Notes: generated from the letters alone by a model not told the origin. 64,000 bases of DNA from Nitrospirota bacterium (GCA_963754875.1 CAVWHO010000008.1:379066-443065); one strand, 5' to 3'. Counted from the stretch's first letter, positions 13,185-45,955 are shown. Translations and numbers: made by a program.

Positions 13185-13188
13185 GGCA

Positions 13189-16445: not shown

Positions 16446-16456
16446 AATGGTCCTCC

Positions 16457-18235
16457 CTATTGATTATTTTCAGAACCTGCAATATAAATCTTGATATCAG
16501 CAGATTTCCTCAATTTTTGTATCCACTCTTCCAGAGACTTGCTCAGTGCGGATTTGAATACAATCGCCCGAATGTCCGCCTGAACCTGCTCGAAGGGTCT
16601 CTGCGTTGGCGGGATCACTTGCTGAACATGCAAAACATAATAGTCGCCTTGCGGACTTTCAAAGAGCCGGAAGTCGTCAGATCGAGCATCTGAAACGGCC
16701 GCCCTGACACCCTCTTCCAGTGAATCGATCGGCACTGGATTTTCATCAAAAGTAAGTAAGTCCTCGGTATTTGCAGACAGCTGGCCTTCGGCATTGGTCT
16801 TGATCCAGGCAAAGTCTGCGCCCTTTTTCAGCCTATCCAAAGCGGAAACAGCATCGTCCTTCTTACCGAACACCAAGCTGCGTATCTTCAGCGATTTCGC
16901 GGTCATGTACTCTCCGGCATGGTCCCGATAGTAGGTCCTCATTTCGTCCTCAGTCACATTAACATTGGGGACAAGAACATTCCCGATGAAAGCCCCGAAC
17001 AGGACGGATCGTTCATACTCCGTCATGATACTTTTATAGGCAGCCGTCTTGTCGAGCCCGCGTTTCAATGCCTCCGTATAAAACAGCTTTTTCTGCACGA
17101 GCTCCTCCAGCGTCTGCTGCTTAAGCGGGGCGAACTTATTGCGATCATAGTCCTTCACTCCATGGAACAGTTTATTCTCCAATGATTCGGACAGCTGCGC
17201 TACCAGGATCGGCTCCTCTCCCTTTATTTCAGCCACAATCCTTTGGTCTTTCATGAGTTTTTCGATACCGGGACCTTGTGGTCCGTAGTCCAGGCTCGTA
17301 AAAAGCTTTCCGTTCACTTTCGTATATTTTTTATACAATGCATTGTGATACTGTCTTAAGGCTTCTATCTTTTTATTTTCGAGTACCGACTGCCGGGCCT
17401 GCTCTTTCGCTTCGGAGCTTTCTTTAGTCTGTTTTTCCTCCAGCCGGAAGAAACCGAAGGCCGTTTTGCCACCCTTCGTAATCCTTCTGACAGAACTTAC
17501 CTCACCGGCTTTTATCGTGGACATTTCATTTACGAGTGCAGGCTCAAGATCGATCAATTTTAAGAACGTTCCTCCCTCCGTCCCTGTCGCCGTCTTGGCC
17601 TTAAGTGCTCCCGCAACGACATTGTCAAAGCTCTCGCCTCTTCGAATCGCATCTGAGGCTCTTTTCGCTTCCTTTTCACTCTTGAACAGCACATAGGTGA
17701 ATTTCACCTCCTGCACGGACGCTTGGTAAACCTTCTCTACTTCTTCGTCACTTGCTGTTACCGTTTTCGTAATCTCGTCCCGTAAGAGGCGTCTTAACGT
17801 AACATGTGAAAAATTATCAAGGTTGCTTTTTATTTCGGGAAGGTCGTGAAGACCGACAGCATTCGCCTCCTGAAGGATGAGCCTCGCATTGACCAGGTTC
17901 CCCAACAATTTCACCATATCCATTTTGGTTTTGGATGTGGCCGAGAGATCATCCTTCGATTCCACCATGTCTTTTTGATGGGTATCGGCAATGGCGTTTC
18001 TGAGATCTTCCAGGGTAATCGGCTCATTATTCACAACCGCGACCGCCACATCCGATCCAACAGAAGACAACAGAGGAATTTTCACCGAAACAAGGATTTT
18101 GCCTTCCTTTGTAACCGGCTTCAGTTCACTTCCTTTTTCTTCCCTGGGGGCCGTCTTCTGATCTGATGCAAAGCATGGCACAGCGGTCAGCAAAATGGCC
18201 AGCATGCTTGTTGATACGAGCAATCTCTTCTTCAT
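16457..18235 (-). CDS. Periplasmic SurA/PrsA-like chaperone with two parvulin-type PPIase modules (OscH-like by position)
   Basis: Signal peptide, VAVVNNEPITLEDL, two rotamase-like segments (RRGESFD, KKGADFAW) and C-terminal WIQKLRKSADIKIY. Confidence 0.85.
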   Translation of the reverse strand: MKKRLLVSTSMLAILLTAVPCFASDQKTAPREEKGSELKPVTKEGKILVSVKIPLLSSVGSDVAVAVVNNEPITLEDLRNAIADTHQKDMVESKDDLSATSKTKMDMVKLLGNLVNARLILQEANAVGLHDLPEIKSNLDNFSHVTLRRLLRDEITKTVTASDEEVEKVYQASVQEVKFTYVLFKSEKEAKRASDAIRRGESFDNVVAGALKAKTATGTEGGTFLKLIDLEPALVNEMSTIKAGEVSSVRRITKGGKTAFGFFRLEEKQTKESSEAKEQARQSVLENKKIEALRQYHNALYKKYTKVNGKLFTSLDYGPQGPGIEKLMKDQRIVAEIKGEEPILVAQLSESLENKLFHGVKDYDRNKFAPLKQQTLEELVQKKLFYTEALKRGLDKTAAYKSIMTEYERSVLFGAFIGNVLVPNVNVTEDEMRTYYRDHAGEYMTAKSLKIRSLVFGKKDDAVSALDRLKKGADFAWIKTNAEGQLSANTEDLLTFDENPVPIDSLEEGVRAAVSDARSDDFRLFESPQGDYYVLHVQQVIPPTQRPFEQVQADIRAIVFKSALSKSLEEWIQKLRKSADIKIYIAGSENNQ

Positions 18236-18333
18236 TATTTCTCCTCACTTTTCATGCTCCCCGCAACTGAGCAAAGTAAATTATCTCGAACAAACCGGCT
18301 GTGCACAGGGATGTCCGGTCCGCCAATCACTCC

Positions 18334-21300
18334 TTACCAGGTAGTCATCATCTTGACCGTACTGCGTACCATCTCCGCAACCATCGCGCTTGCCGTCTTG
18401 ATATTCCCCAATCCGAACAGGGTGACCCCATCGTCTCCTAGGCTTCGAGCTCTCTGAGGACCAGATGATCCTTTTACTGGTTTTTTCAATCAGCATCACG
18501 GAAAAAGTAACTTTCGGGCTCCTCCATTGTTCATCCCGATAGTCCAGGACTTTCCCCGTTAGGAATAGATCGGCATTGATATTTTCGATGAGGATATCGA
18601 TATCGGAAAGTGAAGCTCCTTCCTCCATGATGGTCCTTACGCTGAGAAGTTCCTGCCTCACTATAGCCGGATCGATTACGACAAAATCCTTCCGTTGCGC
18701 CAATTCTTTCACGAATTGCAGCATGACGACCTCTCCGGCGCCAGGTGTCTTACTTTGGTTGAAAAAAGGTATGGCCGCTATGGTGCGCCGTTTATCTCTG
18801 TTGATTATGCTCAGACTGTGTACTTTGTAGCGCCCGAGGGAGGCATTGGCAGGGCTCGACAGTTTCACATCCATCGCCTCAGCGGCCTCGACACCGTCAT
18901 CTCCTGGCATGAGAACAGTAATGATTGCACTTCGACTGCCCGCCTTGATTATAGCGGGATTCGGCGTGGCCGAGTAATCTAACGGTTTCTTCGTTGTACT
19001 ACTGATCGTAAACGGAATAATCACATCCTTGCCCGACAATGCCGACGATTCAATAGCAATAATTGCCGTTTTCGCTTCCCTGATGACGCGCTGATTTTCG
19101 GAAAGAAAGGATATTGTGGGCATGGGCGTGGTATTCACGATGGTATAGGTATGTGTTGTGACGCTTCCCAACACACTGTCGGCAGACTTCAACAGGCTTA
19201 CTTCGATGGTCTTGTTGTCATCGTAGATGCCGTGATTTACAATCTCAAGCTCGATGGTCTTTTCAGTCTCGCCCGGGGCGAAGGTCAGGCTGCTTCCCGC
19301 CATCGCGTAATCCTTCCCCTTGATTGCCGTCCCCCCGGTCACCGCGTACTCCACCGTCACCGGCTTGCCGCTCGCTGCGCCGAGCGCCACCTCGAACCGG
19401 GACTGCCCTACCTTGTCATCGCCCCGGGATTCCTTTCGGCTAAAGGACACCGTCGGCGCCGGATCGCTGTCGACGATGGTCACCGTGCTCTCTGTGCTCT
19501 TTCCCTGCGTCGCGTTCGTGGGGGCTCCCATGCTCACCACGACCGTCTTGTCGTCTTCGTTGATGCCGTTGTCCGTGACATCCACGGCAATCGTTGCGCT
19601 CTTTGTTCCCGCCTTGATCACGACCGGGCTCGCCGTAATCGTATAGTTGCCGGGAGTTTTCGCCGTTCCACTCACCTTGAACGGCACCGTCACGTCCTTG
19701 CCCGACAGGGCCGACAATTCGACAGCGATGGTCGCCGGTCCTCCGTTCTCCTTCGCCTGCTGGCTCGTTGACGTAAACGTCACTGCGGGCGCCGGGTCCG
19801 CATCAATGATGGCATAACTATGCATGGTCGTGCTTCCGAGAACGGCCCCTTTCGGATTTTTGAGGCCGACCTCAATGGTCCTGTTATCCGCATTCAGCCC
19901 GTCATCCCTGATCCCAAGCTCGATGGTCTTTACCGTTTCCCCCGGGGCAAAGGTCAGGGTCTGGGCACCGTCCTTCAGCGTGTAGTTCGTCTCGCGGACG
20001 GCGGTGCCACCCGTGACGGCATATTCTACCGTCGTCAACTTGCCGCTCGCTGCGCTTAGAGTCACCTCAAGCCGGGCGGGACTTACCTTCTCGTCCCCGT
20101 ACGAACTGGGGAGCGTGAATGACACCGTGGGCATGGGCGTGGTATTCACGATGGTATAGGTATGTGTTGTGACGTTTCCCAACACACTGTCGGCAGACTT
20201 CAACAGGCTTACTTCGACGGTCTTGTTGTCATCGTAGATGCCGTGATTTACAATCTCAAGCTCGACGGTCTTTTCAGTCTCGCCCGGGGCGAAGGTCAGG
20301 CTGCTTCCCGCCACCGCGTAATCCTTCCCCTTGATTGCCGTCCCCCCGGTCACCGCGTACTCCACCGTCACCGGCTTGCCGCTCGCTGCGCCGAGCGCCA
20401 CCTCGAACCGGGCCTGCCCTACCTTGTCATCGCCCCGGGATTCCTTTCGGCTAAAGGACACCGTCGGCGCCGGATCGCTGTCGACGATGGTCACCGTGCT
20501 CTCTGTGCTCTTTCCCTGCGTCGCGTTCGTGGGGGCTCCCATGCTCACCACGACCGTCTTGTCGTCTTCGTTGATGCCGTTGTCCGTGACATCCACGGCA
20601 ATCGTTGCGCTCTTTGTTCCCGCCTTGATCACGACCGGGCTCGCCGTAATCGTATAGTTGCCGGGAGTTTTCGCCGTTCCACTCACCTTGAACGGCACCG
20701 TCACGTCCTTGCCCGACAGGGCCGACAATTCAACTGCGATGGTCGCCGCTCCTCCGTTCTCCTTCGTCTGCTGGCTCGTTGACGTAAACGTCACTGCGGG
20801 CACCGGATCGCTGTCGACGATGGTCACCGTGCTCTCTGTGCTCTTTCCCCGCGTCGCGTTCGTGGGGACTCCCATGGCCATCACTACCGTCCGGGCCTCT
20901 TCGTTGATCTTATTGTCGACCGGGCTTACCATAATCGCCGCGCTTTTCGTTCCCGCCTTGATCATGACCGGGCTCGCCGTAATCGTATAGTTTCCGGGAG
21001 TTTTCGCCGTCCCGCTTACCGTGAACGGCACCGTCACGTCCTTGCCCGACGGGGCCGACAATTCGACAGCGATGGTCGCCGGTCCACCGTTCTCCTTTGC
21101 CTGCTGGCTCGCTGCAGTGAAAGCCACAGAAGGCATGGGTGTCGTATTCATGATAGTATAGCTATGCGTGGTTATCGCGCCTATCACGGCATTCTTTGCA
21201 CGTTTCAAGCTCACGACGACTATTTTATCGTCATTATTGATGCCATGATTAACAATACCCAGTTCTATGAATTTGTTCGTTTCGCCGGGGGCGAACGTCA

Positions 21301-24154
21301 GCGAATCTGTCTTGGCTGTATAATCTTTTCCGCTAATAGCCGTGCCACCTGTGAACGCGTACTCCACTGTTACCGGTTTTCCGCTCACTGCCCCGAGCGA
21401 CACCTCCAGCCGGGCCGGGTTCGTCTTCTCATCCCCGCTCGAAACCGCGTGCATGAACGCCACCGCGGGCATGGGCGTGGTGTTCACGATAGTATGGCTG
21501 TGCGTCGTAGCTCCCCCCAGTATGGCGTTTTTTGCGCTCTTCAGGCTCACGTCCACCGTCTTATTGTCGTCGTAGATCCCATCGTTCTTGATGTCGAGCT
21601 CAATCTCCTGTTTTGTCTCGCCCGGGGCGAAGGTCAGGCTGCTTCCCGCCATCGCGTAATCCTTCCCCTTGATTGCCGTCCCCCCGGTCACCGCGTACTC
21701 CACCGTCACCGGCTTGCCGCTCGCTGCGCCGAGCGCCACCTCGAACCGGGCCTGCCCTACCTTGTCATCGCCCCGGGATTCCTTTCGGCTAAAGGACACC
21801 GTCGGCGCCGGATCGCTGTCGACGATGGTCACCGTGCTCTCTGTGCTCTTTCCCTGCGTCGCGTTCGTGGGGGCTCCCATGCTCACCACGACCGTCTTGT
21901 CGTCTTCGTTGATGCCGTTGTCCGTGACATCCACGGCAATCGTTGCGCTCTTTGTTCCCGCCTTGATCACGACCGGGCTCGCCGTAATCGTATAGTTGCC
22001 GGGAGTTTTCGCCGTTCCACTCACCTTGAACGGCACCGTCACGTCCTTGCCCGACAGGGCCGACAATTCGACAGCGATGGTCGCCGGTCCTCCGTTCTCC
22101 TTCGCCTGCTGGCTCGTTGACGTAAACGTCACTGCGGGCGCCGGGTCCGCATCAATGATGGCATAACTATGCATGGTCGTGCTTCCGAGAACGGCCCCTT
22201 TCGGATTTTTGAGGCCGACCTCAATGGTCCTGTTATCCGCATTCAGCCCGTCATCCCTGATCCCAAGCTCGATGGTCTTTACCGTTTCCCCCGGGGCAAA
22301 GGTCAGGGTCTGGGCACCGTCCTTCAGCGTGTAGTTCGTCTCGCGGACGGCGGTGCCACCCGTGACGGCATATTCTACCGTCGTCAACTTGCCGCTCGCT
22401 GCGCTTAGAGTCACCTCAAGCCGGGCGGGACTTACCTTCTCGTCCCCGTACGAACTGGGGAGCGTGAATGACACCGTGGGCATGGGCGTGGTATTCACGA
22501 TGGTATAGGTATGTGTTGTGACGTTTCCCAACACACTGTCGGCAGACTTCAACAGGCTTACTTCGACGGTCTTGTTGTCATCGTAGATGCCGTGATTTAC
22601 AATCTCAAGCTCGACGGTCTTTTCAGTCTCGCCCGGGGCGAAGGTCAGGCTGCTTCCCGCCATCGCGTAATCCTTCCCCTTGATTGCCGTCCCCCCGGTC
22701 ACCGCGTACTCCACCGTCACCGGCTTGCCGCTCGCTGCGCCGAGCGCCACCTCGAACCGGGCCTGCCCTACCTTGTCATCGCCCTGGGATTCCTTTCGGC
22801 TAAAGGACACCGTCGGCGCCGGATCGCTGTCGACGATGGTCACCGTGCTCTCTGTGCTCTTTCCCTGCGTCGCGTTCGTGGGGGCTCCCATGCTCACCAC
22901 GACCGTCTTGTCGTCTTCGTTGATGCCGTTGTCCGTGACATCCACGGCAATCGTTGCGCTCTTTGTTCCCGCCTTGATCACGACCGGACTCGCCGTAATC
23001 GTATAGTTGCCGGGAGTTTTCGCCGTTCCACTCACCTTGAACGGCACCGTCACGTCCTTGCCCGACAGGGCCGACAATTCAACTGCGATGGTCGCCGCTC
23101 CTCCGTTCTCCTTCGCCTGCTGGCTCGTTGACGTAAACGTCACTGCGGGCACCGGATTCGTATTAATAATGGTATAAGTATGCACCGCGGTACGCCCTAA
23201 TAGCGCATTCGTCGGGTTCTTGAGGCTTACCTCGATAGTCTTGCTGTCCGCATTCAGACCGTCATTAAGGATGTCTATATTTATGTCCTTGACAGTCTCG
23301 CTGGGTGCAAATGTCAATGTCCCGTCCTGCAATTTATACTTGATGCCGCGGACGGCGGTACCGCCCGTTACAGCATACTCCACGGTCACTGGCCGAGCAT
23401 TAACCGAACTGAGCGCTACCTCGAGTCTCGCAGGGCTTGTCTTATCAGTGCCGCTGGAACGCTTCAGAACAAAATTTACGATATTCTCACGAAAGTCCGT
23501 TCCCAGGCTCGGGGAGCGGTACACGGACCGCGGTTTGAAATCGATCCTTCCGCCCTCGCCATCGGCCGTTTTTCCCGCCGCAAACGTTTCCAGGGACCCT
23601 GAAAGCTGACGGACTGCTTTCTGCAACAGTACTTTGGGGTCATGAATCACGCCGAGTCCAAGAATCCCGGGAGAATCGTCACCTGCCAGGCCCACGCTAT
23701 CGGCCCACAATACACGAGGATTATCTGTTGCGGCCAGGAGCCTGACTGCCATGGAAATCCGGGGAACGCCGTCTGCATTGTAGGACTCCACCGTGGCAAG
23801 GAGAATGGCGTCGGCCCCAACCTCTCTTTTGAATGCCTCAGCAGTAGCTGCATCCACCCCCATTGAAGGGCGAAAACGATGATTCGACAGGATCGATTTA
23901 ATCGGCGCTTCATCGAGGACGTCGACCCGCTGCGATTTCAATTGTTGCGTCAGTGCTTGCCGGATATCTTCTTCAGGAATGGCCGAATTACTCCTGTTTT
24001 CAATAGGAAGGACGACGATGCGAAGTCTGGTTGCGTCGTCTGGCACGATCTTCCCTGCCGGTCCTTTCACCATCGAACACCCGGTCAGTAACACCAAACC
24101 GGTAAAAAAAACGGCTGCAATCGTTCTATTTAAAAAGCTTTTTGATAAGATCAT
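18334..24154 (-). CDS. Giant lipoprotein: CsgG-like domain + 14 Calx-beta-like repeats + CsgG-like domain (OscG-like by position), with an apparent frameshift near 18445
   Basis: Lipobox LLTGC; IVVLPIENRS and IAAIPFFNQS domains; repeats with VTVEYAVTGGTA..DY..LTFAPGET. The shifted frame gives LGDDGVTLFGLGNIKTA..TTW* (stop 18334), mirroring AGDDSPGILGLG in domain 1. Confidence 0.85.
19113..23156. repeat. Near-identical intragenic repeats: 1011-bp three-domain unit and a larger block duplicated at 2349-bp offset
   Basis: TGGTATAGGTATGTGTTGTGACG recurs at 19141, 20152 and 22501. Shadow ORFs repeat at 19151/20162/22511 and 19820/22169. Confidence 0.95.
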
Positions 24155-27000: not shown

Positions 27001-28413
27001 CTATCGTTCACCCATCATGGCCACCCATGAAGGAGAACCACTGACATCAATATCGGAAATGCTTTTTCCGCTGATCAGATTGACGACCGTGAGGACCTTC
27101 CGGTCGGGAATAAGCATATAGAGATTATCATTATCGTTATCGATCGTCATGAAATTTACCCATCCCTTCGTCGGGATGTATTCTACAGGAGTAACCGCAA
27201 GTGGGTCATACACCGTGACCACTGAGTCATATTTTTTACCCACGTAAATGCGATCAGTCCGGGTATCCACCTTGATAGAGCTCACTCCCAGTCCTATAAA
27301 ATCCCGACGCACCAGAGAGAAGGACTCGGGGTTGATCGTATAAAGGTACGGATAAGATGCGTGGATTACATAGAGCCGGTCCCCGTTGCGATTGAACTGT
27401 CCTCTCAAAGGTTCGGGCCCTGTCGCAATCGTTCCCATGACTGCCCTGCCGGCGATATCGATAACCGATATATTGTCGGAATGGTTGTTAAAGACATAAG
27501 CTTTCCTGCCGGTTTTTTCGATCAGAATGGAGCATGGCCGGTTACCTACGGGGATCCTGGTTACCTCCATCCGAAGTCCGGTGTCAATGATGCTTACCAT
27601 ATTGGAACCGGAATCCACCGCCAACAGTGTGCGTCCGTCCGGCGTGAGGACCAGTTCTTGGGGTTCATCTCCCCGGATCAGCACGATCCTGTCCAGGACA
27701 GTCCCGTCTGCGACGTCGATCACCTCAATTGCGTCTTCATCGCTCAATGCCGCATATGCCATCTGATGCGTTTGGTCAACAACCATGCCTCGGGGGCCGG
27801 CTCCCGTAGCGATTACCCCTATTGCCTCCATTTTCACCTTATCGAACACCGTGATCGTATTCAAACCAACGTTCGTAACATAGCCGGTAACTCCAGGGAC
27901 GGGAGTCGGAGGGGTGTATATGAAAAACGCCGGACTGAAATGGTATCCGTCAGGTATGGATTCACTAAATTTTAATTTGAGGGAAAGCACATATGCCTTT
28001 TTCCGCTCCACCTTGAACATAAATTCCCTCTTGCTCGGCGCCTCAGGGACCAGGAGAGCGGCTTCGCCGTTCGCCGTTTCGAGCGAGGCTTTCTTGGTCT
28101 GGAAAAAGAATCCCTGGTAGGATCCCACCGGCAACCGGCCCTGTGCAATCAACCGCTGTCTTGCCATATCGTTTTTATTAAAATCGCTCACCAGGAGCGC
28201 AAGCGGGAATGCGACGCCGTCGTCCCGCACAGCCGAGATCCCTTCAAAAGAAAATTTGAGCCGCTCATCCGGCTTCTCAAATGGCTGGACATAGAGAAAC
28301 ACTTCCCCTTCATCCTCAAGCGCTGGCTCAGTTTTTAGCGGGAGCGATTGACATCCTGTAACTACCAGCAAGGCAACAAAAAGAATTTTTTTTATCCAGG
28401 CAGCCGTCTTCAT
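27001..28413 (-). CDS. YVTN/YncE-type beta-propeller lipoprotein (OscD-like by position)
   Basis: Lipobox VVTGC; GYVTNVGLNTITVFD and IPVGNRP repeats; ATGA overlap with the upstream cytochrome stop. Confidence 0.87.
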   Translation of the reverse strand: MKTAAWIKKILFVALLVVTGCQSLPLKTEPALEDEGEVFLYVQPFEKPDERLKFSFEGISAVRDDGVAFPLALLVSDFNKNDMARQRLIAQGRLPVGSYQGFFFQTKKASLETANGEAALLVPEAPSKREFMFKVERKKAYVLSLKLKFSESIPDGYHFSPAFFIYTPPTPVPGVTGYVTNVGLNTITVFDKVKMEAIGVIATGAGPRGMVVDQTHQMAYAALSDEDAIEVIDVADGTVLDRIVLIRGDEPQELVLTPDGRTLLAVDSGSNMVSIIDTGLRMEVTRIPVGNRPCSILIEKTGRKAYVFNNHSDNISVIDIAGRAVMGTIATGPEPLRGQFNRNGDRLYVIHASYPYLYTINPESFSLVRRDFIGLGVSSIKVDTRTDRIYVGKKYDSVVTVYDPLAVTPVEYIPTKGWVNFMTIDNDNDNLYMLIPDRKVLTVVNLISGKSISDIDVSGSPSWVAMMGER

Positions 28414-29699
28414 GGGAGAACTCCTGTGTGACACTTATGGCAGAGCGTATCCTGATTGAGGGCGAATCGACTTTCTGTTATTCCGTCATAGGCCATTTGT
28501 GCTTCAAGTTCGGTGCGTCCCTGCCCATAGGGTTGATAGGGTTGGCCTTGCTGCGCATACAATCCGTTGGAAACGATGAAGTCCGTTGTCGTATTCCATC
28601 GCGTAGCCCCGTCCCAACCCGAAGCATGCGCCCGGTGGCACGTGAGACACATCACCTGGGCGTTTACGGAATCCGGTCCGACGAGATAGGAATCATCGTT
28701 CTTCGCATGGGATTTGAGCACGGCATAGCTGGCGGTTCCCTCTTCAAAGGGGACGAGGGAAAGGTACGACATGGTCGAGATCCCGGTGAGATCGCCCGTT
28801 TTAAGGTAAGCGTTATAGTTGCCGCTGTCCGTGAAACCGAGCTTGGCAATGCTTCCTACGGGATGAATTGTCGCTGTTGTCGATGTCGGGGAGCTGAAAA
28901 TCTTGTGCATCGTCGTATGGCAGTTCTGACACCACTCGGACATTCCCGACCCATAAGCCACCCGGGTCTGCGTTACCGCCTCGGATCTGTTGTACACATC
29001 CGGCGCAACCGCAGCAGGCGGGTCGTACGTAAAAGGAATGCTGCCAGGAAGGGATTTAGGCTGATAATTTTCCCCACCCAACATCCGATAGACGCCTACG
29101 GAATAACCGATTTGCGGGTCGGGACTGCTTGCATAGGAACCCGAGCTTTGAATTGCGCTGCCGCTCGTGGTGATCGTACCATCGACATTTCTGCGATATT
29201 GGCCGTGGGGATCGTGACAGCTGATACAAGCGAGGCTCGTCGACGGATAGGTCCCCTCGGGAGCCGTTAAATTTGTCACATCGGCCATATAGGAATAATC
29301 GGCAGCCGTGATGTTGTGGCCGTGTCTTTCCCCGTGGCTGTAGAGCGGCGCCTGCGTTGCATCGGGGACCCAGAAATAGTCCTTTTTGAGCCATCCAAAA
29401 TCACCGCCCGGGGTAATCTGCCGGGGCGGCAGACCGGGGAGCAAATCGGAGGAAGCGGTACTCACAAAGAAATAGGTCGGGCCGACGGCTCCCGCTCGCT
29501 CGTGGCAATTGAGGCAGACCGAACTGGCATCAGAGGCGATTAAGAGGCTTTTCGAGGACAGATCAGAACCATTATGCATGGAGTGGCAGGCATCGCAAGG
29601 ACCAACGCCGCCATTGTGAAAAGCAAAGACTGCCCCTGCAAACGTAAGCATGACCGTGAGGAGCGTCAGTGCAACGAGTGCCGTTTTTCGGAACTTCAT
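28410..29699 (-). CDS. OmcS-family hexaheme cytochrome c, second paralog
   Basis: 6 CxxCH; mature start FHNGGVGPCDACHSMH; TPGGDFGWLKK, GMSEWCQNCH and CLTCHRAHASG motifs. Start codon uncertain (29699-29756). Confidence 0.92.
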   Translation of the reverse strand: MKFRKTALVALTLLTVMLTFAGAVFAFHNGGVGPCDACHSMHNGSDLSSKSLLIASDASSVCLNCHERAGAVGPTYFFVSTASSDLLPGLPPRQITPGGDFGWLKKDYFWVPDATQAPLYSHGERHGHNITAADYSYMADVTNLTAPEGTYPSTSLACISCHDPHGQYRRNVDGTITTSGSAIQSSGSYASSPDPQIGYSVGVYRMLGGENYQPKSLPGSIPFTYDPPAAVAPDVYNRSEAVTQTRVAYGSGMSEWCQNCHTTMHKIFSSPTSTTATIHPVGSIAKLGFTDSGNYNAYLKTGDLTGISTMSYLSLVPFEEGTASYAVLKSHAKNDDSYLVGPDSVNAQVMCLTCHRAHASGWDGATRWNTTTDFIVSNGLYAQQGQPYQPYGQGRTELEAQMAYDGITESRFALNQDTLCHKCHTGVLP

Positions 29700-29822
29700 C
29701 AGTAGGTAAAAATTCCTCATAACCATCTGCGTGCCGCATACCAATCGCGAGCGCATTACTATACCATTGAATTGTTCACGAGAGAATAAAAAAATGCATG
29801 AGAATATATATTATAATGGCAG

Positions 29823-29889: not shown

Positions 29890-31125
29890 TTAGTCTTTTG
29901 CATGGCACTTGTTGCAGAGAGACCGCTGGTAGCTGGAAAAGGACGCCACGGTCCTGCCATAGTAGGCAGCCTGGGCTTCCGCGGCGGTCTGGCCGCGAGA
30001 TACCTGCGCGAACGCGCTGTTGGTGACCATAAATTCGCTGTCGTTAAACCATCTCGTCATGTGATCGAAACCTGAGGCATGTGCACGATGGCAGCTGAGG
30101 CACATGACCTGCGAATTTGAATCCGCACCAGTATCGGGTGCGCCCAGAGCTTTGGCCTGGGTTCTAAGCGTCACCAGTGCATTCAGCTGGCCGCCTGTGC
30201 CGCCTACTTCGAACGGGACCAGTGAGTTGTATGCCGAAGCGACAATGCCGGTCATGTTGCCCGACATCTTATAGGCATTATAATTGTTGATCTGGTCGGT
30301 CGTGAACTTACCATCAGTGCTGACCGGGTGCGAATGCTTGGTGGAGGTGCCTGAAAGCATGTCAGGATGGCAGGTCGCGCACCACTCGGACATACCGGAG
30401 CCGTAGGCAACGCGAAGCTGCGTCGAGTCGGTTTCCGCAACGTTGTAGGTGCCCGGTGCAACGGCAACAGGCGGATTCGCCGAGAAGGTAACACCACGTG
30501 AGGCATCGCCGAGTCCGCGGAGCAGACGATACACACCGATTGCCTGGCCGGCAGCCGGCGTGGCGCTGGTGTTGTACGAGCCGGACCCGATGATCGGCGC
30601 CCCGCCCGTAGAAAAGGTCAAATTCGACATAATACGGTTACGGCCGTGGTTGTCATGGCAGCTGTTGCAGGCGAGATTCCCGGCTGAGAACGTGCCACCA
30701 GGCGCTGTCGTGTTGATCGTATCCGGGCCAAAACCAAAGTCGCCCGCAACGATGTTGTGACCATGTGTAGAGCCAAGGTCGCTGTTTGCGGCGTTGCGTA
30801 CGACAAAGAAATAATCTTTCTTCAACCATGCGAAGTCGCCGCCGGGGGTATAGTTAAGAGGAGCGACGCCCGCGGCCGGTAAGGGCCACGTCAGTTCGTG
30901 ATAGCTGCCTGTTGCCGCGTTTGCGTGGCAGGACAAGCAGGTGGAACTCGGATCCCCGCCAACCAGCAGCGCGTTCGTGGTTGCACCATCTTGGCCATCG
31001 TGAATATTGTGACAACCCGTACACTCGGCGACACCGCCGCTATGGAACGCAAAACTTACGGTGCAGAGGCCGAATATAAAGGCGACCGCAACAGCAATGA
31101 CAAAGCTTAATTTAACAATCTTCAT
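29890..31125 (-). CDS. omcS: OmcS-like hexaheme nanowire cytochrome
   Basis: Mature N-terminus FHSGGVAECTGCHNIH, GHNIVAGD, GMSEWCATCH, CLSCHRAHASGFD and C-terminus YQRSLCNKCHAKD, all as in Geobacter OmcS; 6 CxxCH; AGGAGG RBS before ATG 31125. Confidence 0.92.
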   Translation of the reverse strand: MKIVKLSFVIAVAVAFIFGLCTVSFAFHSGGVAECTGCHNIHDGQDGATTNALLVGGDPSSTCLSCHANAATGSYHELTWPLPAAGVAPLNYTPGGDFAWLKKDYFFVVRNAANSDLGSTHGHNIVAGDFGFGPDTINTTAPGGTFSAGNLACNSCHDNHGRNRIMSNLTFSTGGAPIIGSGSYNTSATPAAGQAIGVYRLLRGLGDASRGVTFSANPPVAVAPGTYNVAETDSTQLRVAYGSGMSEWCATCHPDMLSGTSTKHSHPVSTDGKFTTDQINNYNAYKMSGNMTGIVASAYNSLVPFEVGGTGGQLNALVTLRTQAKALGAPDTGADSNSQVMCLSCHRAHASGFDHMTRWFNDSEFMVTNSAFAQVSRGQTAAEAQAAYYGRTVASFSSYQRSLCNKCHAKD

Positions 31126-31150
31126 GAACATCCTCCTATTAAATGATGTG

Positions 31151-31229
31151 CTCCGGCAGCCCGGCCGTCCTGAGTTCAGGACCCGTAGACTTTGTGTCCC
31201 CACCTTGCGATGGGTTTACCCGTTCGGAG
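31151..31229 (-). ncRNA. GEMM-I (c-di-GMP-I class) riboswitch aptamer in the omcS leader
   Basis: Minus strand CTCCGAACGGGTAAACCCATCGCAAGGTGGGGACACAAAGTCTACGGGTCCTGAACTCAGGACGGCCGGGCTGCCGGAG: P1 CTCCG/CGGAG, P2 with GCAA tetraloop, GACACAAAG junction, P3 and conserved 3' TGCCG. Confidence 0.9.
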
Positions 31230-31357
31230 GATTGCATTGCATCGGCAATGCCGACAAATTGAGAAACTAACAGCTACCTCGTGCTTCTTAACGCTTTGTA
31301 CTATTCTGTATTTCCTCTATCCGACGCCACCCCCTTTCTTTTTATAAGATAGTGTTT

Positions 31358-32333
31358 TCATTCGTAGGACATTCTGAAAACACTGACACCCCGCATGCCC
31401 GCCTGGATGACATAAAGATTATTGTTGCCGTCCATGGCCAGATCAGATGGGATCACTAAATTTTGCGGATTTTTCCCGCGATAGCCGAATTCCGTAACGA
31501 AATTTAAGTTGTTATCAAAGACGGAGACAACGCATCTCAATTTGTCGGACACTACATAGTTCCCCCGGTTGTCCGCTATGATCCCTGAAACAATGCCGAA
31601 TTTCCCAGGTCCGCTGCCCGCCGCACCGAAACTCGCCATAGTACCGTCGGGAGAGAGTCGGTAGGCGCTGAAAAAAACGGGAATCGTGAACAGGATGTTT
31701 CCGTTCTTGTCCAGAGTGAAACCATCCATCTCGACGGATCCTTCGTCCTTCTTCTTAATTTCGAGCTTCGGTGTCAGATCGTAGTTTTTCAATACTAGAC
31801 CCGTTGCATCGGCAACAATGATCTTCAGGGTCCAGAGTATCGGCAAAATAAAAACGCCCTTCCCGATAAAGCATGCGGGTCGGCAAAAAATCAGCAAAAC
31901 CAGCGGGCAGGTTCTTAATCTCAAAACGCTCCAGTGGTTCCGCCCGGTAGGTAGAACGGATAATTTCATACGATTTGGAATCAACTCCGCTCTTATACGA
32001 AAGAGTCAGGATATGACCCTGTTCATCAACTGCGACATCGGCGATCAGGCCGAGTCTCATGTCATTATTAAAACGATCTATCTCGATCCCAACACTATTG
32101 AAAACGGTTAATACATTCGAGCACAAAACGTAAATCTCATTCCTTGTCGGGTCAGCGAATACCCGTCCGCCTTCAGACCGGATGGGACCGGTTACGTCGG
32201 CAAGGGGATAAAGGAAATGGGCAGCTATAGACGATCCGGTTGACGCTGTTGCGGAAAATGCCTGCATCAACAGACAGAGACAAACAAGAAGAGCAACCGA
32301 TAACAGGTTATTTTTAAATATTCTGGTAGCCAT
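31358..32333 (-). CDS. Exported NHL/6-bladed beta-propeller protein upstream of omcS, split by a frameshift near 31835
   Basis: ORF 31755-32333 (signal peptide ... GRFYFADTL) continues in ORF 31358-31984 (TLKIIVADATG ... FGAAGSGPGKFG ... LVIPSDLAMDG). Removing one base joins them. Confidence 0.8.
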
Positions 32334-33858: not shown

Positions 33859-36800
33859 CTACGACCCATGATATGCCTGCACTTTCGCCCTAATGTCGTC
33901 CTGGATCCTTTCCATCGTAATTCCCTCAGCGGGGTACTCCTGCCCCTGACTGCGGCTCAATTCCGCTTGCCTGCGGTAGGTGGTTTGAATAACAAGGAAT
34001 ACGTCTTGTACGAATTTCCGTATTTGCGAGTTGAGGTCCGGACCGGAGAGATACGCCTGACCAAAAATCTTTTTCGCGGCATTGTCAACAAAGATGACGG
34101 CCGCCCTTTCTTCGCCTGCCCGCACGATCACGGCGGAAATTTCGATAACTACGTTCTCCCCGCCGGCGCTTCGCAGGGGAAACGGTATTTTTTGAAGCAG
34201 CGCCGGGACATGCGACTGCGCTTCGAGATATTCTTTATGAAGAAACCGTCCCGGCGCAAACTCCGGGTATTTTTTGTCCGATTCCGCCAGGTAAATCCTG
34301 AACTCCGGTTCGTCGTCGTGTCCCCCGATGAACAACGCTCGCGCGCGGTCTTCAATCATGGCGGCCGACGCGTTCGAGTTCCACTTTCTCATCTGCGCTT
34401 CTCGAAATTTTCCCTGCGCTTCAGGAACGAGATAGGGAAGAATGCTCTCCCGGTATCGGGCTATGACAGAGAGATTGTATCCCATGGTATTTATGCCGAC
34501 GGAAGCGGGGGTGGAGAATTCGAGATATAAATTATCGTCGGTATTGATCACGCCGCCGGAACTGAACGCCGCCATTGCATTTGTCCCCATGACAAAGTAG
34601 CTGAGAAAGTCCGTCGCTGAACCCATGGATACCTGCTCAAGATCATTGAGAAGGGGAGGATAAGATATGCGTCGTTCCAGCTCTTTTTCATCTATGATGA
34701 TCGGGGAATTGCTCCCGATGAGTTCCACATCATGCGCCGTCAGCCATGCCATCGTATATCTAAAATGCAGAGAGAACGTCCTCACAATGGATTTCAAGTC
34801 TTCTACTTTCAGCTCGTAGATCGGCAACCACTGGCACATAATGCCATCAGGCAGGAGATGCTCGGAAGCTATCCTAAAATACTCGTCAGTATAAAGATAT
34901 CCCGACCCCTGGGTCCAGGGATGAATCGGGTCCGCAGTGATCACGTCGTACTTGTTCTTCGTGGTCATCAAAAAGTTCCGGCCGTCATTGAATATAATTT
35001 TGAGTTTCGGGTTGTCGAGAACGTAGTGGTTGTATTTGCCGAAGGTTCTGGCGCAGCCCGTAACGTTCGGTTCTATCTCCGCGAGGGTGAGGTCTTTCAC
35101 GCTCGGATGGATCGAAACAGCTCCAGCGGTCATTCCGGTTCCGAGGCCGACGACAAGCACTTTTTGCGGATTTTTGTGGAGCAGCATCGGAAGATGACCA
35201 AGAGCCAACTGGCACTGCCGGTCGCCGAGTGATGCCGATGCAACGACCTTTCCGTTGACCAGTACCGCCTGGTTGCCTCCCTTTACTTTGATTGAGCTGA
35301 TGGTCGAATTCACCCCTTCATGGTAATAGAGCACATCGGTGTTCGCGATGGCATCCTGTTTCTTTTCCGGTGTGTCATAAGCTGCCGGCAAGTTGTTCTG
35401 GAAAATGGCGAAAAACTTGGCATCCCATACTCTCAAGGTGTTGTGACTGGTCATAAGAAACAGGAGAGATGCCAGCGTCAGAACTCCGCAGGCAATGCTC
35501 ATGACTTTGCTGTTCTTAGTACTGAGGATGATGAGAAGTCCGGCCCCGATATTAACGACGGTCAGAAATTGAAGGGACCGTTCAAGGCCCAAGAGGTAGA
35601 TCAAGACAAAACCGCTCACGGCCGACCCCAAAATCGAACCAACAGTGTTGTATGCCAGAACATTCCCGACTGCATAGCCGATTCTTTTTCTGTAATGAGC
35701 GATGACCGTGCCCGCCAGGGGAAATGCCGACCCCATAAAAAAAGCCGGAACGAACATATAAGAAAAAGCAAGCGTCATATTTGCCCATTGACGGGCATCA
35801 AAAACGCTCATTCCCCGGGATAAATAAAATGAGTTTAACGAAAGGGCATGGACCGGAAGATCGCGGATATTAATCGTTACAAAAAGCGCTGTAACGCCTA
35901 TAATGCACTGTACGATCCCGAAGCGAAGGGTCCGGCTTAATATCTCATTCTTGACCGAGGGGAATAATCTGTGGAAGAGTCCATAGGACCCGCTGCCGAA
36001 GGCGATGCCGGCCAGAAAGGCAACGAGCATGATCGTAAAACCGTACACGCTTGTGCCGATGGTCAGGGTAAGGATCCTGGTCCAAAGGACCTCATAGCCG
36101 AGGGCGCAGAAACCGCTGACACCGATACCCAAGAGAACCATTTTCACAGGATAAGCGTAAGTTAGTGTATTTTTTTCGTCCTCTTCCCTGACCACATTCT
36201 CCTCAGCATTTTTTTCGAAATTATCATTTCCCTGCATTGAATTGTCATGAATAGCTGATGCGCGTCCCGATAAGAGTACGGCGGCAAACCCGACCAGCAT
36301 ATTCATCACGATTGCCGTATGCAGGGTCATGCTGACCGAATAGAGCCGGAGCAGATAAAATCCGGCCGTCATCGTCCCTGCAACGGCCCCCAGGGTATTG
36401 AAGCCATACAGGAGGGACAGTTGCGTCCCCATTTTCACGGAGTTTCTTGAGACAAACCGCGTCAGGACCGGAAGGGTCCCGCCCATGAGTGTTGTGGGAA
36501 CGAGCAATGCGAAGACGGAGAAGGCAGCTCGCACCAATGTGAGATACAAACGGTGATCCTCGTGTCCCTGGGCCAGGTAGATATAAACGGAAGGATAGAT
36601 TTTCATCAAACCGCTAAATGCCAGCGCCGAAAGGGCAATGCCGATCTCAAGATACCCGTACAATCGCAGCGGTTTCTTTATCCGGTCAACGGATCTGCCG
36701 ATGGCATAGCTGCCGAGTGCCAGCCCTGCCATGAAGACCGATAAGACGACGGTGACTGCCAGATGAGTGCCGCCGAAAATAAGGCTCAAAGAGCGCACCC

Positions 36801-36882
36801 ATACGACTTCGTACATCAGCGATGCCGAGCCTGAAAGGAAAAAAAGAGCGTATACCAATCCTAACGTTAAATAAAAGTACAT
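33859..36882 (-). CDS. Fused membrane (MFS-like) / spermidine-synthase-like protein
   Basis: SGSASLMYEVVWVR, LYGFNTLGA, VGLGTGMT, AEIEPNV, NDGRNFL, DVITADP and NTDDNLYLEF motifs; GGAGGAG RBS before ATG 36882. Confidence 0.9.
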   Translation of the reverse strand: MYFYLTLGLVYALFFLSGSASLMYEVVWVRSLSLIFGGTHLAVTVVLSVFMAGLALGSYAIGRSVDRIKKPLRLYGYLEIGIALSALAFSGLMKIYPSVYIYLAQGHEDHRLYLTLVRAAFSVFALLVPTTLMGGTLPVLTRFVSRNSVKMGTQLSLLYGFNTLGAVAGTMTAGFYLLRLYSVSMTLHTAIVMNMLVGFAAVLLSGRASAIHDNSMQGNDNFEKNAEENVVREEDEKNTLTYAYPVKMVLLGIGVSGFCALGYEVLWTRILTLTIGTSVYGFTIMLVAFLAGIAFGSGSYGLFHRLFPSVKNEILSRTLRFGIVQCIIGVTALFVTINIRDLPVHALSLNSFYLSRGMSVFDARQWANMTLAFSYMFVPAFFMGSAFPLAGTVIAHYRKRIGYAVGNVLAYNTVGSILGSAVSGFVLIYLLGLERSLQFLTVVNIGAGLLIILSTKNSKVMSIACGVLTLASLLFLMTSHNTLRVWDAKFFAIFQNNLPAAYDTPEKKQDAIANTDVLYYHEGVNSTISSIKVKGGNQAVLVNGKVVASASLGDRQCQLALGHLPMLLHKNPQKVLVVGLGTGMTAGAVSIHPSVKDLTLAEIEPNVTGCARTFGKYNHYVLDNPKLKIIFNDGRNFLMTTKNKYDVITADPIHPWTQGSGYLYTDEYFRIASEHLLPDGIMCQWLPIYELKVEDLKSIVRTFSLHFRYTMAWLTAHDVELIGSNSPIIIDEKELERRISYPPLLNDLEQVSMGSATDFLSYFVMGTNAMAAFSSGGVINTDDNLYLEFSTPASVGINTMGYNLSVIARYRESILPYLVPEAQGKFREAQMRKWNSNASAAMIEDRARALFIGGHDDEPEFRIYLAESDKKYPEFAPGRFLHKEYLEAQSHVPALLQKIPFPLRSAGGENVVIEISAVIVRAGEERAAVIFVDNAAKKIFGQAYLSGPDLNSQIRKFVQDVFLVIQTTYRRQAELSRSQGQEYPAEGITMERIQDDIRAKVQAYHGS

Positions 36883-36907
36883 GGTTACCCTCTCCTCCCT
36901 GATGCCA

Positions 36908-37729
36908 TCAAGTTGAGGAAACACTCATCGGTCGGACATATGGTAATGAGAAAACCTGATCGGAAACTGAAGCTTTGTGGACAGCATCCTGATGCGGACC
37001 TTGCCGTATGCAGGAGGAGTAATCAGCCGTCGAACTCCTGTTTATTTTTTTTAACATAGCAGAAAAATGCCATTCTGGACGAAGAAGGCTTCTAATAATG
37101 GGAATGTGGGCGTATATCTGGATACCGATATTCATTTTTTTTATTTCAAAGTTCAGTTCCTCACAGAGTTGTTTGAAATATGCAATTGTAAAATATTTTT
37201 CCGGCAAAGGAACGCCGTATCCCCAATTGCCGACGAAATCCATAATTTTAAGCATCCACCTCGAGTAACATGAATATTCAAAGCTATCCTTGATGATAAC
37301 AATTTTCCCGATCCTGTGTGCTTCTTTCAATAAATGCACAGCATTTGAATTCGCATGGTGAAGCGCGTCGCAGAACAAGACTATATCTACGGAATCATCA
37401 TCGAAAGGCAAGTCCTTGCCGTTAAATTTCCGATAGTTGCTCCACTTCGCACTCTGCCTAAGGTGCTCGGGCAAATCATAGATGTCCAAGCATTCCCAGA
37501 CAGTTCCGGGGACATGTTCTGCAATTCGCTCCTGGATCCCGAGGTCTCCGCAGCCAACGTCCAAGCACCTGACATTTTTATTATCGCCTACCAGTTCTTT
37601 AAAATAGATCGTGAGTTGATCAGACAGGACGTCTATCCTTTTGGCATGAGATATTTTCCCATGAATAACATTGAGCGCCCTATGAACAAAGTTTAATTCG
37701 TGGCTGGTTTTAGCAATGGGAGAACTCAT
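36908..37729 (-). CDS. Class I SAM-dependent methyltransferase
   Basis: LDVGCGD, LPFDDDSVDIVLFCDALHH and LLKEAHRIG motifs. Confidence 0.88.
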   Translation of the reverse strand: MSSPIAKTSHELNFVHRALNVIHGKISHAKRIDVLSDQLTIYFKELVGDNKNVRCLDVGCGDLGIQERIAEHVPGTVWECLDIYDLPEHLRQSAKWSNYRKFNGKDLPFDDDSVDIVLFCDALHHANSNAVHLLKEAHRIGKIVIIKDSFEYSCYSRWMLKIMDFVGNWGYGVPLPEKYFTIAYFKQLCEELNFEIKKMNIGIQIYAHIPIIRSLLRPEWHFSAMLKKINRSSTADYSSCIRQGPHQDAVHKASVSDQVFSLPYVRPMSVSST

Positions 37730-41085: not shown

Positions 41086-41805
41086 ATGAAAAAATATTTT
41101 TTAGTTGTTGACGACGAGGACTTAATTCGCCACTCACTTTCTGTGGCATTTCACGACAGCGAACGAGAAGTAATAACAGCGGCGGCCCGGGAATCGGCAT
41201 TCAAGGCAATCAGCGAAAACCGATTCGACCTCTGTTTTCTGGACATGCATCTTCCGGACATCAACGGCCTCGAGATCATGAAAATGCTCCGCGATGTTTC
41301 TCCTCAGACGCGGATCATCATGATGACGGAAAGCGGAATCACTGACGCAATCATGAAAGAGGTCCGCGAAAACGCGCACTGTCTGATTTCCAAGCCCTTT
41401 GAACTGGAACAGGTGAAGGCCCTGGTCGGCCGTGTCCTTTCCATGGGAAAGAACCCGCACCAGGAGGATAGCATAGCGGCCGAAAGCGAAATGTCCTCGC
41501 TTCAATGGATCAGCGATGACAACCGAAAACACCGGCGGAAGCCGATCGCCAATAGCATCACCTGTTACGCGGTCGCGCCGCATGGCGACATGACCGCCAC
41601 GCTCGTCACCGCCAACATTCTCGATATCAGTGAAACAGGTATGGGCATCGTTACCGACTGCAAGCTGCAGCCGGGGTACCTTATCCGATTGAGCGATGCG
41701 CCGGTACACGGCAGAGGTGTAGTCCGATGGAGTGAAGACGCCGGTGCCGTGGCCGCGTACCGGGCGGGAATTCAATTCGTATCGCCCGAAAACGTTCCGC
41801 AATAA
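41086..41805 (+). CDS. Response regulator, receiver + PilZ domain (copy 1)
   Basis: LVVDDE, FLDMHLPD and SKPF receiver motifs; PilZ motifs RKHRR and DISETG; ends YRAGIQF. Confidence 0.88.
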   Translation: MKKYFLVVDDEDLIRHSLSVAFHDSEREVITAAARESAFKAISENRFDLCFLDMHLPDINGLEIMKMLRDVSPQTRIIMMTESGITDAIMKEVRENAHCLISKPFELEQVKALVGRVLSMGKNPHQEDSIAAESEMSSLQWISDDNRKHRRKPIANSITCYAVAPHGDMTATLVTANILDISETGMGIVTDCKLQPGYLIRLSDAPVHGRGVVRWSEDAGAVAAYRAGIQFVSPENVPQ

Positions 41806-42268: not shown

Positions 42269-43657
42269 TCATTCCAAACCCAACTTTTTCACCTGATAAC
42301 GGAAAGCGTCATAACTGAGACCCAGGAGTTTCGCCGCCTGTGTTTTATTTTTATTCGTTCGATCGAGCGCCTGAACGATGAGATCCTTTTCCAGATCGTC
42401 AAGAGATATGCCCTGCGCCGGGAGCGAGACCCGTCCCTCAGGGGAGTGCGTGGTAATCCCCGCGCTGCTGGTCAGCCAGTTCGGCAGATGCTCGGGCACG
42501 ATCTCCTCCGCTCCTTCAAGAACTACGAGCCGCTCCAACAGGTTCCTCAGCTCCCTGATGTTCCCCGGCCATTCGTAGGAGGTAAGAATCTTCTCCGCCT
42601 CGGGAGAAATAGTAGTCATGGATTTTCGTTGATACCGCGTCGTGAACTGGGACAGGAAATGCTGCGCGATGCGCGGAATATCGTCCTGACGCTCCCGCAG
42701 CGGCGGTATGTGCAGGTAGAACGTGCTCAGCCGGAAAAACAAATCCATCCTGAACGTCCCCTGGTCCACTGCTTCCGCCAGGTTTCTGTTCGTCGTGGCG
42801 ATCACGGTGACATCAATCGGGATTTCTTCGCTCCCGCCCACGGGCCGCACAGTCCGCTCTTCCAGCACCCGGAGCAGTTTGCCCTGAAGGGTGTGTTTCA
42901 TGTCGCCGATTTCATCAAGAAGGATGGAGCCCCCCTGCGCCATCTCGAACAACCCCTTCTTGTCCGATTTTGCGTCGGTAAACGACCCTTTCTCATACCC
43001 GAACAATTCGCTCTCCAGGAGCGTTTCCGGGAGGGCTGCGCAGTTGACCTTGATGAACGGGGCAAAACCGCTCCCGGAGGCTTCATGAATCATGCGATGG
43101 GCATAACGCGCGAACAGCTCCTTCCCCGTCCCGCTCTCCCCGGTGATCAGCACCGTTGAGACGGAAGCCTCGGCCATTCTTGCGATTTTCGACTTCAGTT
43201 CCTGGACCACCTTCGACTCGCCGACAATCTCTTTCTCGAAGATCTCGGATTGCACCTTCCGCAGATAGACGACTTCCTTTTTCAACTTTCCTTTTTCAAT
43301 GATGTTCTGAAGGACGATTTTCACCTCATCGACATTGAACGGCTTCGTGAGATAATCCGCGGCGCCCAGTTTCATGGCCTTCACCGCCGTCTCCGCCGTA
43401 TCGTCGGCTGTCACCATGACCACCTGGGTGGGAAGCTCCTGCTTGACGATCTCCTGCAGGACATCGATGCCGCTCTGATCGACGATCCGGATATCGAGCA
43501 GGACTACGGCGGGCGACCAGGATTTTATCTTGCTCACGATGCCGTCGGCAGTGGTCGCGGTCCGCACCTCATACCCGTTGCTTTTAAGCAACCGGGAGAG
43601 CATCGAGACAATAAGCTCGTCATCATCGATGAGGTAAATTTTCGGCTGGTCCTTCAT
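42269..43657 (-). CDS. Sigma54-dependent NtrC-family response regulator (REC-AAA+-HTH)
   Basis: LITGESGTGKE, ESELFGYEKGSFTDA, LLDEIGD, WPGNIREL and C-terminal HTH. Start 43657 preferred. Confidence 0.95.
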   Translation of the reverse strand: MKDQPKIYLIDDDELIVSMLSRLLKSNGYEVRTATTADGIVSKIKSWSPAVVLLDIRIVDQSGIDVLQEIVKQELPTQVVMVTADDTAETAVKAMKLGAADYLTKPFNVDEVKIVLQNIIEKGKLKKEVVYLRKVQSEIFEKEIVGESKVVQELKSKIARMAEASVSTVLITGESGTGKELFARYAHRMIHEASGSGFAPFIKVNCAALPETLLESELFGYEKGSFTDAKSDKKGLFEMAQGGSILLDEIGDMKHTLQGKLLRVLEERTVRPVGGSEEIPIDVTVIATTNRNLAEAVDQGTFRMDLFFRLSTFYLHIPPLRERQDDIPRIAQHFLSQFTTRYQRKSMTTISPEAEKILTSYEWPGNIRELRNLLERLVVLEGAEEIVPEHLPNWLTSSAGITTHSPEGRVSLPAQGISLDDLEKDLIVQALDRTNKNKTQAAKLLGLSYDAFRYQVKKLGLE

Positions 43658-44699: not shown

Positions 44700-44715
44700 T
44701 GGCACGGTAATTGCT
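44700..44715 (+). promoter_or_regulatory. Sigma54 -24/-12 promoter for REC-PilZ copy 2
   Basis: TGGCAC-GGTAA-TTGCT, a consensus match. Confidence 0.8.
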
Positions 44716-44782
44716 TTTTAAATCTAACTCAGAAGAGTGAGGATGGGATAACATTCATTGGTGAAAAAATAAAAACCGGTAA

Positions 44783-45520: not shown

Positions 45521-45580
45521 CAACCCAAGCTCCGGTTATTTGCATCACAGCTGCGACAAGCACGCGCGTCAGGGGGACAG

Positions 45581-45931: not shown

Positions 45932-45955
45932 ACGGAAAATTCTTCATGCCGGCTG

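Follow-up and report, generated by a model that had tools for sequence, protein, structure and literature searches.

A G20 c-di-GMP-I riboswitch in the leader of a Nitrospirota omcS homolog: predicted translational ON control and variation of the ligand base among orthologs

The omcS cluster and its leader aptamer

The window, a 64-kb stretch of DNA from a Nitrospirota bacterium, carries a homolog of the multiheme cytochrome gene omcS at 29890-31125 (-). Its 411-aa product has six CxxCH motifs, a signal peptide-like N terminus and full-length homology to PDB 6EF8 (phmmer, E 9.8e-96), features that identify it as an OmcS cytochrome. It matches at 48% the OmcS of genome G850, which is treated here as G. 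sulfurreducens because, over 407 residues, the mature part of its protein shows no difference from 6EF8 and because it holds 17 GEMM-I matches, the number reported for that species (PMC6456294). From homology and cluster synteny, we infer that the window protein could polymerise into a conductive filament. A second OmcS/OmcT-like hexaheme cytochrome gene, recognised by sequence comparison, lies at 28410-29756 (-) and has a leader without a riboswitch; it too has a homolog near omcS in G850.

Several neighbors correspond to genes of the G. sulfurreducens omcS cluster. Upstream of omcS is a beta-propeller gene (31358-32333, -) that is split into two frames in the assembly, matches the gene upstream of G. 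sulfurreducens omcS at 38-39% and has a weak Pfam SBBP match; the gene is whole in G. sulfurreducens, and other frameshifts of the source genome resemble assembly errors. A membrane protein with a spermidine-synthase domain (33859-36924, -; PF01564) matches a protein of that cluster at 47% over 1014 aa, a sigma-54 response regulator and a histidine kinase (42269-47785, -; Pfam) match their counterparts there at 45% and 35%, and a downstream propeller matches at 41%. The cluster extends through 18281-24154 (-) and 12279-18235 (-), and it also carries a PPIase, two large cytochromes with doubled CXXCH motifs, an NHL protein and a 1957-aa protein in which 13 Calx-beta repeats stand between two LpoB/CsgG-like ends. 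Homologs of omcS were detected at E 1e-40 in 24 of 64 genomes of the host class (the family comprises the same 64 genomes) and at E 1e-50 in 32 of 401 genomes of the phylum sample, and none was found in the plasmids and viral contigs searched. The group names Desulfobacterota and Geobacterales are used as inferred from protein likeness. An SD-like element of extended form (AAGGAGGTG or AAGGGGGTG) lies some 150-200 nt upstream of omcS in the window (31326-31337, -), in many other omcS leaders and in G. sulfurreducens; it has no long ORF and is possibly an mRNA 5' stabiliser or a short upstream ORF.

GEMM-I riboswitches and their association with omcS have been known since 2007. In the window, the c-di-GMP-I aptamer RF01051 is the sole Rfam match (cmscan), at 31152-31230 (-), with 56.9 bits against a gathering threshold of 35, an E-value of 1.8e-8 and coverage of model positions 1-87 of 87. 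This is the Infernal/Rfam check that the earlier note had proposed, and it confirmed the note's description of a GEMM-I aptamer with G20, G21-C46, U22-A45 and C92 (positions in Vc2 numbering). The aptamer belongs to the G21-U22 subfamily. G20, the base that reads G-alpha in the known aptamer (PMC6140456), is at 31220 (-), and the segment C44-A45-C46-A47 occupies 31193-31196 (-). G21 (31219) pairs with C46 (31194) and U22 (31218) with A45 (31195), while A47 (31193), judging by the known aptamer, would intercalate in the ligand. C92 (31156, -), the Watson-Crick partner of G-beta, is C in 83 of 84 omcS leaders, and positions 21, 22 and 47 are invariant in 46 orthologs. P1 is formed, according to sequence and folding, by CTCCG (31225-31229, -) and CGGAG (31151-31155, -). 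An assembly error at G20 is ruled out, as contigs of three other sequencing runs (X1, X2 and X3) cover 31220 and agree there, with no alternative letter listed, whereas a fourth run, X4, contributed no contig; in the three runs with contigs, the remaining pocket bases are likewise unchanged.

The 3' end of the aptamer is 26 nt upstream of the omcS ATG, a 5' regulatory position. Directly 5' of the aptamer, folding gives a small GC hairpin (31241-31255, -) that recurs in omcS leaders, whether or not they contain an aptamer. The score, together with G20, A47, C92 and G21-C46, places the RNA in the c-di-GMP-I family. It differs from GEMM-Ib cGAMP riboswitches both in having G rather than A at 31220 and in combining G21-C46 with the absence of a terminator, whereas the 13 classical copies of G. 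sulfurreducens have C21/G46 in the lower P2 and a terminator platform. The window aptamer is also assigned to RF01051 and not to c-di-GMP-I-GGC (RF03167, gathering 59), although several of its orthologs score higher on RF03167 than on RF01051. The window RNA is a genuine and ordinary RF01051 member, orthologous to the known omcS switch.

One departure from the family, absent from the earlier note, concerns the J1/2 junction. The window aptamer has four nucleotides (AACG) before G20, with C at position 18, whereas J1/2 is five nucleotides long in Vc2 and in 68 of 88 orthologs and four in 8 of 88; the five-nucleotide length is no absolute mark of the family, as the model still matches. Since Vc2 contacts its ligand through C17, A18 and G19 (PMC5049679), affinity of the window aptamer may be lower. 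Taken further, this would make the aptamer weak or non-binding and the leader a mostly ligand-blind translational brake or an RNA stability element. Such a reading would fit the report that Vc2 acts through RNA stability (bioRxiv 10.1101/617340), as well as the existence of decayed or aptamer-free omcS leaders: L016 keeps a riboswitch remnant from which the P2/P3 interior is lost, and L008, L080, L084, L086, L092 and L094 retain only the small GCCGG hairpin, from which it follows that the switch was lost repeatedly. We regard it as unlikely for the window copy, in which every core base is kept and the pocket is the same in the contigs of three other runs; moreover, the same AACG-G junction recurs in two other genera (G049 and G050).

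Other GEMM-I copies and leaders depart from the common form in their own ways. In the source genome, a G20 riboswitch (G000:C21:200191-200270, -) is parted from a surface-protein gene by a transposase-like ORF, and another copy (G000:C13:106508-106584, +) seems to miss a few bases of the 3' strand of P3, through decay or an assembly error. The intervening ORF is presumably an IS200-like transposase.

A predicted translational ON platform

The sequence ATCCTCC (31226-31232, -), which overlaps the 5' strand of P1, is complementary to the SD region of omcS, GGAGGAT (31130-31136, -), which lies four bases ahead of the start codon (ATG at 31125). This complementarity had been pointed out in the earlier note, and the minimum free energy (MFE) structure of the 166-nt leader indeed pairs the two segments (z -2.9; 2 of 200 shuffles equally good). 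Because P1 itself dictates four of the seven anti-SD bases in this leader, the P1 3' strand and the SD sharing GGAG, the 7-bp match in a single leader is modest evidence; it is conservation among orthologs that lifts the match above chance.

For this comparison, 88 distinct omcS-linked leaders were gathered and 84 analysed, with L209, L240, L308 and L311 dropped as their P1 could not be parsed; the resulting counts describe conservation and not probability, since kin are not independent. The first anti-SD position beyond P1 can pair with the SD in 81 of 84 leaders and with the 3' side of P1 in 9, and two positions further out the figures are 74 and 9 of 84. The outer anti-SD:SD pairs vary in type (AT 57, CG 6, GT 3, TG 3, TA 3, GC 2 among the 84 leaders), a pattern of covariation that supports the helix. 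Eleven leaders came solely from search patterns requiring an anti-SD; of the 73 that did not, 68 have at least six of the seven positions paired. The median probability that the SD is unpaired rises from 0.008 in the free RNA to 0.43 with P1 forced, at a median cost of 4.7 kcal/mol. In the window leader it rises from 0.05 to 0.35, and the cost of 3.0 kcal/mol would be within reach of ligand binding.

The folding results are not uniform across the family. In 64 of 84 leaders the free SD is unpaired with a probability below 0.1, while the other 20 are not strongly closed; a strict open/closed cut holds for just 9 of 36 leaders, and a comparison of cognate with swapped duplexes was marginal (352 of 10,000 permutations as low) and is given no weight. 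Two alternative start codons were discarded: a GTG at 31203 lies in the aptamer and an ATG at 31131 lies in the SD. No terminator-like site was found between aptamer and ATG in the window leader, a U6 run occurs in 2 of 84 omcS leaders, and a Sigma-70 scan gave no signal above shuffles.

P1 and the anti-SD:SD helix are mutually exclusive, as the same 5' strand masks the SD and forms P1, and both are conserved with covariation. A translational ON switch is therefore the best reading of the omcS leader, and one that conservation and covariation support well; the geometry proposed for the window in the earlier note is thus a property of the 84 leaders as a group. In the absence of ligand, ATCCTCC is predicted to sequester the omcS SD, an expectation in line with folding, conservation and covariation. 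Ligand held between G20, A47 and C92 would stabilise P1, and P1, by taking up the 5' strand, would release the SD for the ribosome. The alternative is OFF control or control at transcription. Vc2, the best-known translational GEMM-I riboswitch, is described as an OFF switch (PMC9262584), and in the window leader a weak local SD hairpin persists after P1 formation, leaving the SD open just 35% of the time. Nevertheless, such a switch is very improbable here, given that the SD is masked by the same strand that forms the 5' side of P1 and that no terminator was found.

The anti-SD type of riboswitch is not confined to omcS, as it also precedes genes for non-OmcS secreted proteins whose N terminus reads GSPHNF or GSSHDF (L177, L184, L187, L200 and L229). 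A further observation concerns omcS paralogs without GEMM-I in G098 and G137 (L095, L097 and L098), where a different two-hairpin motif stands just before the SD and is repeated before several copies; Rfam gave no match in L043.

The ligand base in omcS leaders

Position 20 is the ligand-reading base of the aptamer. Wild-type Vc2 (G20) has an affinity for c-di-GMP in the pM range and binds cGAMP at 10 uM, while its G20A variant binds both ligands, at 53 and 120 nM (PMC6140456). By analogy with the wild-type affinities, the proposal that G20 in the window predicts a preference for c-di-GMP is supported. Selectivity also depends on other features, namely the lower P2 and the stability of P1 (PMC9262584; PMC6140456). 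Vc2, the RF01051 type example from Vibrio cholerae, shares with the window aptamer G20, G21-C46, A47, C92 and the three-way junction; the window aptamer differs in its U22-A45 pair, its shorter J1/2 and its predicted ON rather than OFF action.

The closest known system is the omcS riboswitch of G. sulfurreducens (GSUR3014, which lies upstream of GSU2504). Both RNAs precede the same gene in the same cluster and share G21-U22/A45-C46, A47, C92, a near-identical P2, an anti-SD overlapping P1 and the lack of a terminator. In the G. sulfurreducens leader (L305), the anti-SD ATTTCCTCC pairs over 9 bp with GGAGGAAAT. The same gene, the syntenic cluster and the near-identical P2 identify the window element, at the level of sequence, as an ortholog of this riboswitch, and its G21-U22 aptamer, its anti-SD over P1 and its syntenic OmcS-family gene place it in the omcS-leader subfamily. 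The two differ in that the G. sulfurreducens copy has A20 and a five-nucleotide J1/2, against G20 and four nucleotides in the window, and in that the former has been reported as sensitive to c-di-GMP as well as cGAMP (PMC6456294), whereas the window copy is predicted to be selective for c-di-GMP.

Among the 17 GEMM-I switches of G. sulfurreducens, 13 are A20-C21-U22, three are G20-G21-U22 and that of omcS alone is A20-G21-U22; it is also the only one with an SD directly behind the aptamer, while 15 others have a T run downstream. Judged by its sequence, the switch on Geobacter omcS belongs to the G21-U22 subfamily, as a form with A20, and is not a classical GEMM-Ib. Hence the earlier description of it as a cGAMP-selective GEMM-Ib riboswitch with A20 stands only for the base itself: the report of a response to both ligands speaks against selectivity, and its lower P2 puts it in the other subfamily. 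Classical GEMM-Ib switches (Gs1761/pgcA, Gm0970, pilM) have the same fold and also control extracellular electron-transfer genes, but they carry A20-C21 (13 of 17 in G. sulfurreducens) and mostly terminators, in contrast to the G20-G21-U22 and anti-SD of the window RNA.

The anti-SD also leads us to predict translational ON control of omcS in G. sulfurreducens. The omcST genes gave the smallest effect of the cGAMP regulon in that species, and in a gacA deletion omcS mRNA changed from 22 to 15 (q = 1), compared with 668 to 93 for pgcA (PMC6456294 and its supplement file 6); a flat omcS mRNA is as expected of translational control. Counting against activation by c-di-GMP, low c-di-GMP has been reported to raise omcS expression in G. 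sulfurreducens (PMC12285248, citing another paper).

Across the 84 omcS leaders, position 20 is G in 51, A in 29 and C in 4 (G 49, A 21 and C 3 among the 73 from searches with no anti-SD requirement). G20 is thus the majority state, and the window copy is the common form, not a unique rewiring. This leaves the claim of a different wiring peculiar to this host unsupported, all the more since a G20 omcS leader occurs even in G814, of the Geobacter order, alongside nine classical cGAMP-type switches. The C20 aptamers (L091 in G004, L173, L281/L307 in G660 and L303 in G840) have C92 kept. Near relatives differ: G20 in G041 and in G375 stands against A20 in G047, the two omcS paralogs of G052 have one G20 and one A20, and the congeneric G007 has A20. 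Within the order that includes G660, 10 of 239 genomes gave 13 pattern matches: ten A20, two C20 and one G20.

On a tree of 46 OmcS proteins of at least 300 aa with leaders (LG+G4), position 20 needs 14 changes, of which the starred branches force eight, and a common origin of all A20 forms was rejected (A20 clade, p-AU 4e-51). Long branches meet near the root, and no ancestral state of position 20 is claimed. Thus A20 forms would have arisen or reverted repeatedly in omcS leaders. A metagenome scan in which position 20 and the anti-SD were left free gave at least 120 loci, 111 of them distinct. Among the matches listed, a sister subfamily whose 5' strand reads TTTCCG has G20 in 41 cases and A20 in one, while the anti-SD type has G20 in 33, A20 in 14 and C20 in 2; position-20 variation is specific to anti-SD leaders in that comparison (41 of 42 G20 against 33 of 49).

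Second messengers in the source genome and the reading of base 20

The source genome, 90% complete, holds seven GEMM-I matches, four with G20 and three with A20, two of the latter with the classical A20-C21 signature. The earlier note had suggested a search for Hypr-type GGDEF cGAMP synthases. None of the 28 GGDEF matches of the source genome is of the GacA type (Ser with GGDE[F/Y]), but two have the Hypr serine, and one of these is a GSU1937-like candidate with Ser and GGDDF. This HAMP protein (G000:C21:95525-96908, +; L314) is the best match of a HAMP/Ser/GGDDF protein of G. sulfurreducens, to which its cyclase domain is 48% alike (E 8e-66). From the description in PMC8835794, which reports GSU1937 as an active second cGAMP synthase, we infer that this G. 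sulfurreducens protein is GSU1937. The source-genome copy resembles GSU1937 in Ser and GGDDF and differs in being split in the assembly by one extra base, which is absent from related contigs in all four of four runs; G003 has an intact homolog. On these sequence features it is the likely cGAMP synthase candidate of the source genome. Several genomes have a second HAMP-GGDDF copy in which Asn replaces Ser at the signature site (paralogs L330, L342-L345 and L333). No SMODS/CD-NTase family match was found in the 90% complete source genome.

The other Hypr-serine protein, a GAF-GGDEF protein (G000:C16:84190-85113, -; L125), reads NDRYGHLEGS and GGEEF, with two extra residues before GGEEF. In translation searches, such a Ser/GGEEF GAF protein was present in 17 of 22 class genomes (L113-L124, L127, L128, L131, L132, L136 and L137). 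The Ser/GGEEF pairing has been reported to be inactive and absent from nature (PMC6456294), and this protein is, by its sequence, a conserved natural counter-example to the second of these statements.

The two dinucleotides, c-di-GMP as well as cGAMP, are therefore plausible messengers in the host, in which case G20 could matter. Nearby PilZ proteins had been cited as support for c-di-GMP, but this argument is rejected: the genes at 41521-41799 and 45581-45931 lie 10-14 kb from the aptamer, and the 4.3-Mb genome has 29 PilZ matches. A cGAMP response of the RNA in vivo despite G20, alone or alongside c-di-GMP and within a host cGAMP regulon, would draw on the GSU1937-like enzyme, on the three A20 switches and on the dependence of selectivity on more than base 20. 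Set against the 10 uM at which G20 Vc2 binds cGAMP, and with no G20 cGAMP-selective aptamer in the sections of the literature consulted, it appears distinctly improbable.

With these comparisons, the leader is best explained as a GEMM-I ortholog of the Geobacter omcS switch that would act as a translational ON switch, respond to c-di-GMP and discriminate against cGAMP, a reading to which we give a probability of about 0.72. By analogy with the G. sulfurreducens copy, A20 omcS leaders are likely bispecific, and the real contrast between G20 and A20 is then likely one between c-di-GMP only and c-di-GMP or cGAMP.

What the variation at base 20 means is a separate matter. One account holds that position 20 drifts near-neutrally between G and A, that c-di-GMP is the working ligand of all omcS leaders and that A20 merely tolerates cGAMP, with no rewiring relative to Geobacter. 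It is compatible with the ON mechanism and competes only with the idea of different wiring. What makes it a serious rival is that position 20 tracks neither the cGAMP-synthase candidates nor the A20 switches of relatives: of 19 class genomes, translation showed the Ser/GGDDF enzyme in 14, alongside G20, A20 and C20 leaders, and classical GEMM-Ib copies occur in 6, four of which have a G20 omcS leader. The sample is small and related, and no statistic is claimed for it. In addition, position 20 changes about as often as position 19 (14 and 16 times on the 46-protein tree), the G. sulfurreducens A20 copy is reported to be bispecific, and C20 occurs in 4 of 84 leaders. Neutral drift sits less easily with the near-constancy of G20 in the TTTCCG subfamily among the matches listed, with the preponderance of A20 in the order of G660, with the G19 that precedes A20 in 26 of 31 leaders, and with the orders of magnitude in c-di-GMP affinity that Vc2 loses when G20 becomes A (PMC6140456). 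We place it somewhat short of even odds.

Selection offers another account of the variation, put forward tentatively and with more doubt than belief. Base 20 would be a selected tuning knob of one old translational ON switch shared by the omcS genes of Nitrospirota and of Desulfobacterota-type bacteria, G. sulfurreducens among them. Lineages and tandem paralogs would toggle between G20 (c-di-GMP only), A20 (either ligand, reached via a G19-G20 intermediate like the window copy) and an uncharacterised C20. The literature search returned neither an omcS translational platform nor repeated base-20 changes; its scope did not extend to the 2015 primary papers (Kellenberger, Nelson, Ren), the 2017 variant-riboswitch paper or Smith 2010, which may already describe this platform or omcS copies with G20.

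The window copy is ordinary when taken alone, and its value comes from the family comparison of omcS leaders. If omcS is gated at translation, the response of its mRNA, the weakest in the cGAMP regulon, would be accounted for, and RNA-seq would understate the control that second messengers exert on nanowires. Natural G20, A20 and C20 versions on one gene provide a series for the evolution of ligand specificity, which also bears on whether cGAMP signalling works in Nitrospirota. If base 20 is indeed a tuning knob, G20 would detach the synthesis of nanowires from the cGAMP regulon in a host that likely makes cGAMP and carries A20 switches at other loci.
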